64,000 nt of DNA from Stylophora pistillata. Its lineage: Eukaryota. Below are positions 3,247-3,511 of the stretch, one piece after another. Numbering within the stretch: position 1 is the stretch's first letter; every line of letters begins with the position of its first letter. The notes beneath the pieces are model-generated. The model saw only the letters and a program-made list of their open reading frames with translations. It did no database searches and had not been told where the DNA came from. The DNA lies in assembly GCF_002571385.2 (NCBI RefSeq), contig NW_019217797.1:448032-512031 (forward strand), given 5' to 3'. The position numbers were made by a program, and so were the translations under genes.

Positions 3247-3511
3247 TCGTTCTTTTCTTTTCATCACGTTTCCTTCTGCGAATCTGCATCCAGGGAAAAA
3301 TACAGATGCCTTGATATTGCGCTTGGCTCGGTGATGAAGATCTGACATGTTCGGCGGTTTCCGCTCTGACTTCTGTAGGTATGTCTTTTCTGTTCTCATT
3401 GCATACTGGTAGGTTTGACGAATACGCTTTCATTCTGTCGGGATACGTATCATCCGTCCGGCCTAGAAGACGATTTATTGAATGCGAAAGAGAAGAAACA
3501 CGTTTTTCCAT
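3247..3511 (-). CDS. Putative exon 1 of an ANTP-class homeobox gene (eh1-like motif plus FPWM hexapeptide); homeobox exon not seen in window; positional candidate for Anthox9/HoxR
   Basis: AAAACATGG start context; N-terminal SHSINRLLG (eh1-like, 3484-3464); IFPWM (FPWM at 3298-3287) followed by basic QIRRRKR; consensus donor A|GTAAGT at 3247/3246 in phase 1, the same architecture as the three confirmed homeobox genes. Confidence 0.7.

Follow-up and report, generated by a model that had tools for sequence, protein, structure and literature searches.

This locus raises the question of which gene owns a coding exon on the minus strand at 3247..3511 that encodes two motifs typical of homeobox proteins. 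The exon lies within the window, that is, the whole stretch of 64,000 nucleotides analysed here, which contains three homeoboxes, all of them on the + strand. The first-pass annotation had taken the exon for the orphaned start of a hidden fourth homeobox gene.

The distal exon and its surroundings

The features on which the argument rests are given below. The two Hox genes of the + strand carry names that we take to be correct from their homeodomain signatures together with the published gene order.

3247..3511, - strand: coding part of what is almost certainly a distal alternative first exon of Anthox6a/HoxB (265 nt, that is, 88 codons plus A)
3461..3484, - strand: eh1/octapeptide-like motif HSINRLLG, residues 10-17, a candidate Groucho/TLE-binding site
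3287..3304, - strand: hexapeptide CIFPWM (IFPWM, residues 71-75), a candidate Pbx-binding site
3251..3280, - strand: basic linker RRRKRDEKKR, residues 78-87, between the hexapeptide and the exon end
3241..3246, - strand: splice donor GTAAGT, phase 1 (junction A/GTAAGT)
1..3246, - strand: intron, running on past the window edge, with no tblastn match to either partner exon
3650..3657, + strand: TGATTGAC, weakly Pbx-Meis/Prep-like, ~140 nt upstream of the distal exon's ATG
13243..14214, + strand: two-exon Hox gene, presumably Anthox1a/HoxE
23609..25114, + strand: two-exon Hox gene, presumably Anthox7/8
49929..51939, + strand: Evx, which among single-domain PDB entries matches Even-skipped best (E 1e-26)

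A strong start context, HSINRLLG, IFPWM followed by a basic stretch, and a phase-1 GTAAGT donor had all been noted before and can be read in the sequence; the start context is aaacATGG, and an in-frame TAA lies two codons 5' of the ATG. The eh1-like motif conforms to F/Y/H-x-I-x-x-I/L-L, lies near the N-terminus, and is kept in orthologues; under the strict consensus [FY]x[IVM]xx[IL][IVLM], HSINRLL qualifies only with His allowed, and it fails a pattern restricted to [FY]. In spliced homologues, the [YF]PWM lies 23-25 residues N-terminal of the homeodomain, within the usual limit of ~30 aa. The combination of a Met, an eh1-like motif, [FY]PWM, and a phase-1 donor occurred once in the real window and in none of 300 dinucleotide shuffles; since this pattern was picked after the exon had been seen, the homologues described below are the stronger proof. 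No family in Pfam or NCBIfam matched the distal exon, and the ESM Atlas, queried with homologous N-termini, yielded sub-0.9 leads to vertebrate Hox/Mox N-terminal fragments that we did not count as evidence.

Upstream of the start, an out-of-frame ATG at ~3527 (-), 16 nt away, opens a short overlapping ORF and could damp translation if it lay inside the 5' UTR. The likeness of TGATTGAC to the consensus of a Pbx-Meis/Prep site is weak; with seven copies across the window, its occurrence near the distal exon is not unusual. Within the intron, we also observed (i) a tRNA-like stretch at ~2170-2260 (-) that resembles a SINE head, ARAGORN having called no tRNA within 1-14000, and (ii) a MITE-like hairpin at 136-324 with 57-nt arms that are 95% complementary.

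A phase-1 intron 5' of the homeobox is common to all four genes, and to this extent the earlier claim that the exon shares the exon-1 design of the other three homeobox genes stands. It fails for the motifs, of which none of the three genes has both: the 13 kb gene carries neither in exon 1, YPWM is the sole motif of the 24 kb gene, and Evx has just the eh1-like one. In the Anthox1a-type gene, a single-Trp hexapeptide-like VPWHY sits past the intron in exon 2 (13937-14214, +), a placement unlike that in the other Hox genes of the window.

The distal exon and Anthox1a are divergent, as had been proposed, with ATGs at 3511 (-) and 13243 (+), respectively; between them lie a GNAT-like gene and an element resembling a transposon. 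The first of these is a single-exon gene for a GNAT-fold acyltransferase at 7995-8690 (+), lying between HoxB and HoxE, which matches Pfam Acetyltransf_5 (E 8e-6), more weakly FeeM and autoinducer synthases, and, far under the cut-off, an OlsB-like NCBIfam family; in one database model, the gene has an additional short exon upstream. It places a bacterial-like N-acyl amino acid synthase within a coral Hox cluster, possibly through an old transfer. The second is a 1.55-kb element (4973-6522) that looks like a DNA transposon, its 56-nt terminal inverted repeats (79% complementary) surrounding a 174-aa ORF (5537-6061, -) for which Pfam gave no match.

The order HoxB-HoxE-Anthox7/8-Evx, with HoxB on the opposite strand, agrees with the available parts of two sources, namely the Montipora preprint, which places three Anthox6a paralogues on the opposite strand, followed by Anthox1a, Anthox8, Anthox6, and Evx, and PMC6214176 (Table S13), in which HOXB adjoins or lies near HOXE in six corals. 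In the accessible text of PMC10719294, HoxB also adjoins HoxE in Xenia and Rhopilema. Because the published coral gene orders agree, we identify the gene opposite Anthox1a with the known HoxB; the position of HoxB beside HoxE in corals is already published.

Homologues of the exon and their partner homeobox exon

Among 39 candidates, a search of longer proteins with the distal exon gave one hit, the Pocillopora verrucosa 'Hox-A4 isoform X1' of 242 aa. The window exon is identical to the N-terminus of XP_058965116 at 68 of 78 positions (87%), and the RefSeq X1 N-termini of P. damicornis and P. verrucosa share 87% identity with it. Also in the cluster of the P. verrucosa X1 are the P. damicornis X1 model and P0013, a full-length protein encoded by a Logan contig; this contig encodes the whole 242-aa form within 938 nt and, being too short for an intron like the window's (>3.2 kb), represents the spliced form. 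The view that this is a coding first exon of a homeobox gene is thus borne out by spliced models in relatives, and a spliced form, one of the tests named in the first-pass annotation, exists both in these models and on the 938-nt contig.

In Porites lutea, XP_073236143.1 carries an LSHSICRILG motif at its start, FPWM, and a basic run. Its pairwise similarity to the window exon is weak (tblastn E 0.33). On a profile of ten other homologues, the Porites N-terminus scored 36.3 bits, the top of 146 real N-termini (next 25.2), with ordinary Anthox6a exons at no more than 18.6 bits; this score was reached by none of 2000 full shuffles and by none of 2000 shuffles that preserved the hexapeptide and tail. 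An exhaustive search added exon-only homologues at 62, 45, and 43% identity (three of its five hits), the repetitive chance hits P0137 and P0138 being dropped; P0185 is a further exon-only homologue that seems to be without the basic tail.

Both motifs are kept in these homologues, as had been asked of related corals. Mean identity to the window exon across seven homologues is 0.88 in the eh1-like motif (residues 10-16), 0.74 in the hexapeptide, and 0.30 between them; P-W-M is invariant in all nine aligned sequences. Residues 1-20 are 76% identical, so that conservation extends past the seven eh1 residues. In alignment A1, S-K follows the basic run in nine of nine read-through ORFs, as the window's A/GTAAG yields, which suggests a conserved splice donor. 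The exon homologue P0139 and the Anthox6a exon 2 P0031 both lie on ENA contigs of one and the same length, 854,309, which suggests that the two are linked.

With respect to gene structure, we conclude with little doubt that the distal exon is a second, alternative first exon of Anthox6a/HoxB. Three X1/X2 pairs of RefSeq XP isoform models, which are predictions, have consecutive accessions (XP_027048247/8, XP_058965116/7, and, in Porites lutea, XP_073236143/4); within them, exon 2 shows 0 mismatches over 152, 152, and 150 residues, respectively, while exon 1 differs, so that all three pairs join two first exons to one identical downstream exon. The X1 members (XP_027048247.1, XP_058965116, and XP_073236143.1) carry the orthologous exon with the same junction phase and belong to the same gene as the window's, and the split codon A/GA (Arg) is found at the Pocillopora X1 junction; no functional description of the isoform X1 models was found. 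The ordinary form (isoform X2 in both Pocillopora species) has YPWM without eh1, and in our full-protein search nearly all coral and anemone Anthox6a proteins have a first exon whose last residues are YPWM-K/T-E-F/Y-R. Every spliced protein in which the distal exon was found (four Pocillopora records and one from Porites) uses Anthox6a exon 2. Five of the 67 Anthox6a-type proteins that bear a hexapeptide show an eh1-like pattern, and the distal exon is present in all five. The linker from the hexapeptide Trp to the homeodomain spans 23-25 aa in the distal isoform versus 13-17 aa in the ordinary hexacoral isoform (23 versus 16 in Pocillopora; 25 versus 13 in Porites). As judged from these predicted proteins, the two-exon arrangement is kept across the Robusta/Complexa split, between Pocillopora and Porites lutea. 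The hidden, orphan fourth gene therefore gives way to one of two first exons, spliced in relatives to the Anthox6a/HoxB homeobox exon.

The partner homeodomain places the gene accordingly. In spliced Pocillopora proteins, it has 55 of 60 residues in common with Nematostella Anthox6a (ACT36587.1), and that of the spliced orthologue P0002, through which, rather than through the window's own exon 2, the grouping is made, falls in a 19-row Anthox6a clade (support 97/98) of a tree with 37 rows and 60 columns, built without Anthox9, Gsx, or Tlx rows. The homeodomain phylogeny that the first-pass annotation had called for returns Anthox6a for this orthologue. The gene resembles Anthox6a/HoxB (ACT36587.1; coral HOXB, cluster H1) in its homeodomain, its coral HoxE neighbour, its exon-1 hexapeptide, and its phase-1 intron. 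The Anthox6a protein that has been studied comes with a single first exon, which encodes YPWM and lacks eh1, whereas the coral distal exon adds an eh1-like motif, FPWM, and a basic linker longer by 7-12 residues.

The ordinary Pocillopora form is represented on dozens of contigs (58 for P0143) versus one short contig with the spliced distal form, which makes the distal isoform a rare one. The clusters listed for Acropora, Montipora, Oculina, and anemones did not contain it; an Orbicella record carries the label isoform X2, implying an X1. No published description of two Anthox6a first exons was found in the literature searched, whose coverage takes in few subscription journals; what is new is the isoform level, the gene and its cluster position being already known.

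We also observed multiple Anthox6a copies (Pocillopora, three; Oculina, three; Acropora, two), so that the Montipora triplication described as 'lineage-specific' is widespread or recurrent:

P. damicornis: P0143, P0159, P0160
Oculina: P0019, P0181, P0032
Acropora: P0034, P0058

Neither partner exon was detected in the window. A motif scan and tblastn with full-length homologues over its whole length found no homeobox exon on the - strand, in agreement with the first-pass annotation, and the ordinary first exon gave no tblastn match there. NCBI lists the window's GNAT-like protein, which clusters with the named S. pistillata PFX33246.1, on a contig of 1,462,766 nt, and a complete S. pistillata Anthox6a of 218 aa (PFX33249.1/XP_022804770.1) is annotated on a contig of that length. 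Since the two genes would thus share one scaffold and the window holds no match, both partner exons (the ordinary first exon and the one with the homeobox) are most likely situated left of position 1, which would place the distal exon >3.2 kb upstream of them. The 108-N gap (1529-1636) is an unlikely site for the homeobox exon, because exon 2 needs >450 nt; it is also disfavoured by the complete 218-aa annotation. No protein carrying the exact window exon was found among the protein collection searched, and the isoform therefore seems unannotated in this assembly. The expectation that annotation would easily miss the exon is thus correct for this exact sequence but not for the isoform, which RefSeq models in three coral species under the names Hox-A4, Hox-C5a-like, or 'uncharacterized'.

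Proposed function of the distal isoform

The explanation that we favour as a whole, and consider probable, is that Anthox6a/HoxB has a distal first exon, mutually exclusive with the ordinary one, that gives a repressor form of the protein. In transcripts started at a distal promoter, the 3247 donor would be joined directly to the homeobox exon that both forms share, leaving out the ordinary first exon. The resulting protein, predicted at ~241 aa (88 + 1 + 152), would match the ordinary form in homeodomain and C-terminus and would have an N-terminus of its own, with (i) the eh1/octapeptide-like motif, (ii) the FPWM hexapeptide, and (iii) the longer basic linker. This N-terminal region is probably disordered. 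Its hexapeptide would bind Pbx, and its eh1-like motif would recruit Groucho/TLE, a repressor step in which our confidence is moderate. The distal isoform, presumably minor or stage-specific, would then repress at sites bound by the ordinary isoform, which is without a built-in co-repressor motif, and we therefore propose that promoter choice sets the regulatory sign.

A HoxB repressor form that still works with Pbx is most likely, because elsewhere eh1 binds Groucho/TLE and the hexapeptide serves PBC dimers. The functional TALE-dependent repressor envisaged in the first-pass annotation is plausible. According to the available parts of PMC4901127, eh1/octapeptide motifs accept F, Y, or H at position 1 and bind the Groucho/TLE WD40 domain, which is also stated in the accessible text of PMC1310626. 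Nematostella Anthox6a dimers with PBC need the hexapeptide unless Meis is present (PMC3383740 and PMC3957477, in the parts available, where the Pbx/PBC binding covers only the ordinary Nematostella isoform).

A less probable, though by no means negligible, reading holds that the alternative exon is real, but that the hexapeptide and linker, or the expression pattern of the promoter, are what matters, the N-terminal block serving in activation, as a degron, or for another partner instead of binding Groucho. The conservation of residues 1-20 beyond the eh1 residues, the dependence of the strict eh1 consensus on a permitted His, and the report, in the available part of PMC5003318, that linker length alters Hox-PBC modes would all accord with this, whereas the invariant spacing H-x-I-x-x-L/I-L and the near-N-terminal position are eh1/octapeptide traits. 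An eh1-like motif does not prove repression, since Drosophila NK-2B activates despite an intact Groucho-binding TN domain (PMC3141242, as excerpted). In the same excerpts, Drosophila vnd/NK-2 A and B resemble the repressor form proposed for coral HoxB in that a repressor and an activator with one homeodomain arise through the use of different promoters and first exons; unlike coral HoxB, vnd/NK-2 is of the NK class, has the Groucho-binding TN motif in both isoforms, and, in these excerpts, has no hexapeptide swap.

The layout of the distal isoform, with eh1 and hexapeptide before an ANTP homeodomain, recurs in Gsx, Evx, Mnx, Gbx, and En, as well as in Tlx and sponge NK genes. In its available parts, the Copley preprint (10.1101/2023.03.14.532566) proposes this layout as ancestral and holds that anterior Hox genes lost eh1. 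The eh1 motif is constitutive in the genes treated there, whereas it is optional in coral HoxB, an anterior-type cnidarian Hox gene.

Origin of the distal exon and its meaning for coral HoxB

Outside the hexapeptide, the distal and ordinary first exons have no detectable similarity (hhalign probability 0.3%), and the distal exon stems either from a very old duplication followed by the gain of eh1 or from another gene whose first exon was captured. It seems doubtful to us that the exon was captured from an independent homeobox gene that formerly lay between HoxB and HoxE and may have been the Anthox9/HoxR-like 'fourth Hox gene' postulated for the ancestor of the cluster; the source gene would have lost its homeobox in stony corals and would survive by splicing onto that of HoxB. 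Such a capture would fit both the position of the exon and its dissimilarity to the ordinary exon 1. Nematostella Anthox9/HoxR is like the distal exon in lying on the opposite strand close to Anthox1a, and differs from it in having a divergent homeodomain of its own (Ile16), with no expression detected by in situ. A review (PMC4083563, in the part available) mentions that a fourth ancestral Hox gene with affinity to Anthox9 has been postulated; trees place Anthox9 inconsistently (the excerpted PMC1779807 among other sources). Homologue searches returned no distal-exon homologue in anemones. If capture were true, two ancient genes would share one homeodomain, and one of them, acting as an inbuilt repressor form, would retain the combination of eh1 and hexapeptide that has been put forward as the ancestral ANTP layout.

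Exon 1 of octocoral Anthox6a, which has IFPWM and a long linker, was considered as an orthologue of the distal exon and is unsupported as such: its hexapeptide region scores higher against the ordinary exon than against the distal exon (hhalign 95.7% versus 78.5%), and nothing aligns outside it. Octocoral-type Anthox6a proteins (P0067, P0068, and P0071) have a conserved N-terminal N-S-L-G-S-L-L/I with eh1-like spacing and no aromatic first residue, and profiles gave no support for homology of this motif to the distal exon.

We find it quite improbable that the distal exon is a decaying relic of a duplicated Anthox6a without a homeobox, whose splicing to its neighbour is functionless leak-through. 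Tandem duplication of Anthox6a in Pocillopora, Oculina, Acropora, and Montipora, where some copies are silent, and the rarity of the spliced form would be compatible with a relic; however, the open frame, the start Met, both motifs, and the phase are kept from Pocilloporidae to Porites while identity in the middle falls to 30%, and a relic is also disfavoured by the dissimilarity to the ordinary exon 1 noted above.

Hardly credible is the idea that the exon opens a gene of its own, with a homeobox exon outside the window and one of the identities floated in the first-pass annotation (Anthox9/HoxR or Tlx-like NK): Anthox9 does lie 3,865 nt from Anthox1a in opposite orientation in Nematostella (PMC1779807, available part), and eh1 plus hexapeptide N-terminal to the homeodomain, found here as well, typifies Tlx-like genes (Copley preprint, as excerpted), but every spliced protein found with the distal exon uses Anthox6a exon 2, whose homeodomain has Leu16, not the Ile16 of Anthox9 (PMC1779807), and E19/R30, the HOX-like polarity, not the NK-type R19/[DE]30 (Copley preprint).

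The alternative first exon of HoxB bears on a gene that defines one pair of gut segment boundaries in anthozoans and whose expression, in the available part of the Montipora preprint, prefigures boundaries. Its published biochemistry, in the accessible parts of PMC3383740 and PMC3957477, treats Anthox6a as one protein with one hexapeptide, and probes or knockdowns directed against the homeobox exon pool two proteins. The distal isoform is a possible exception to the loss of eh1 in anterior Hox genes. A second N-terminus with a co-repressor-type motif, kept across a deep coral split, would offer a testable route by which one Hox gene may both activate and repress.
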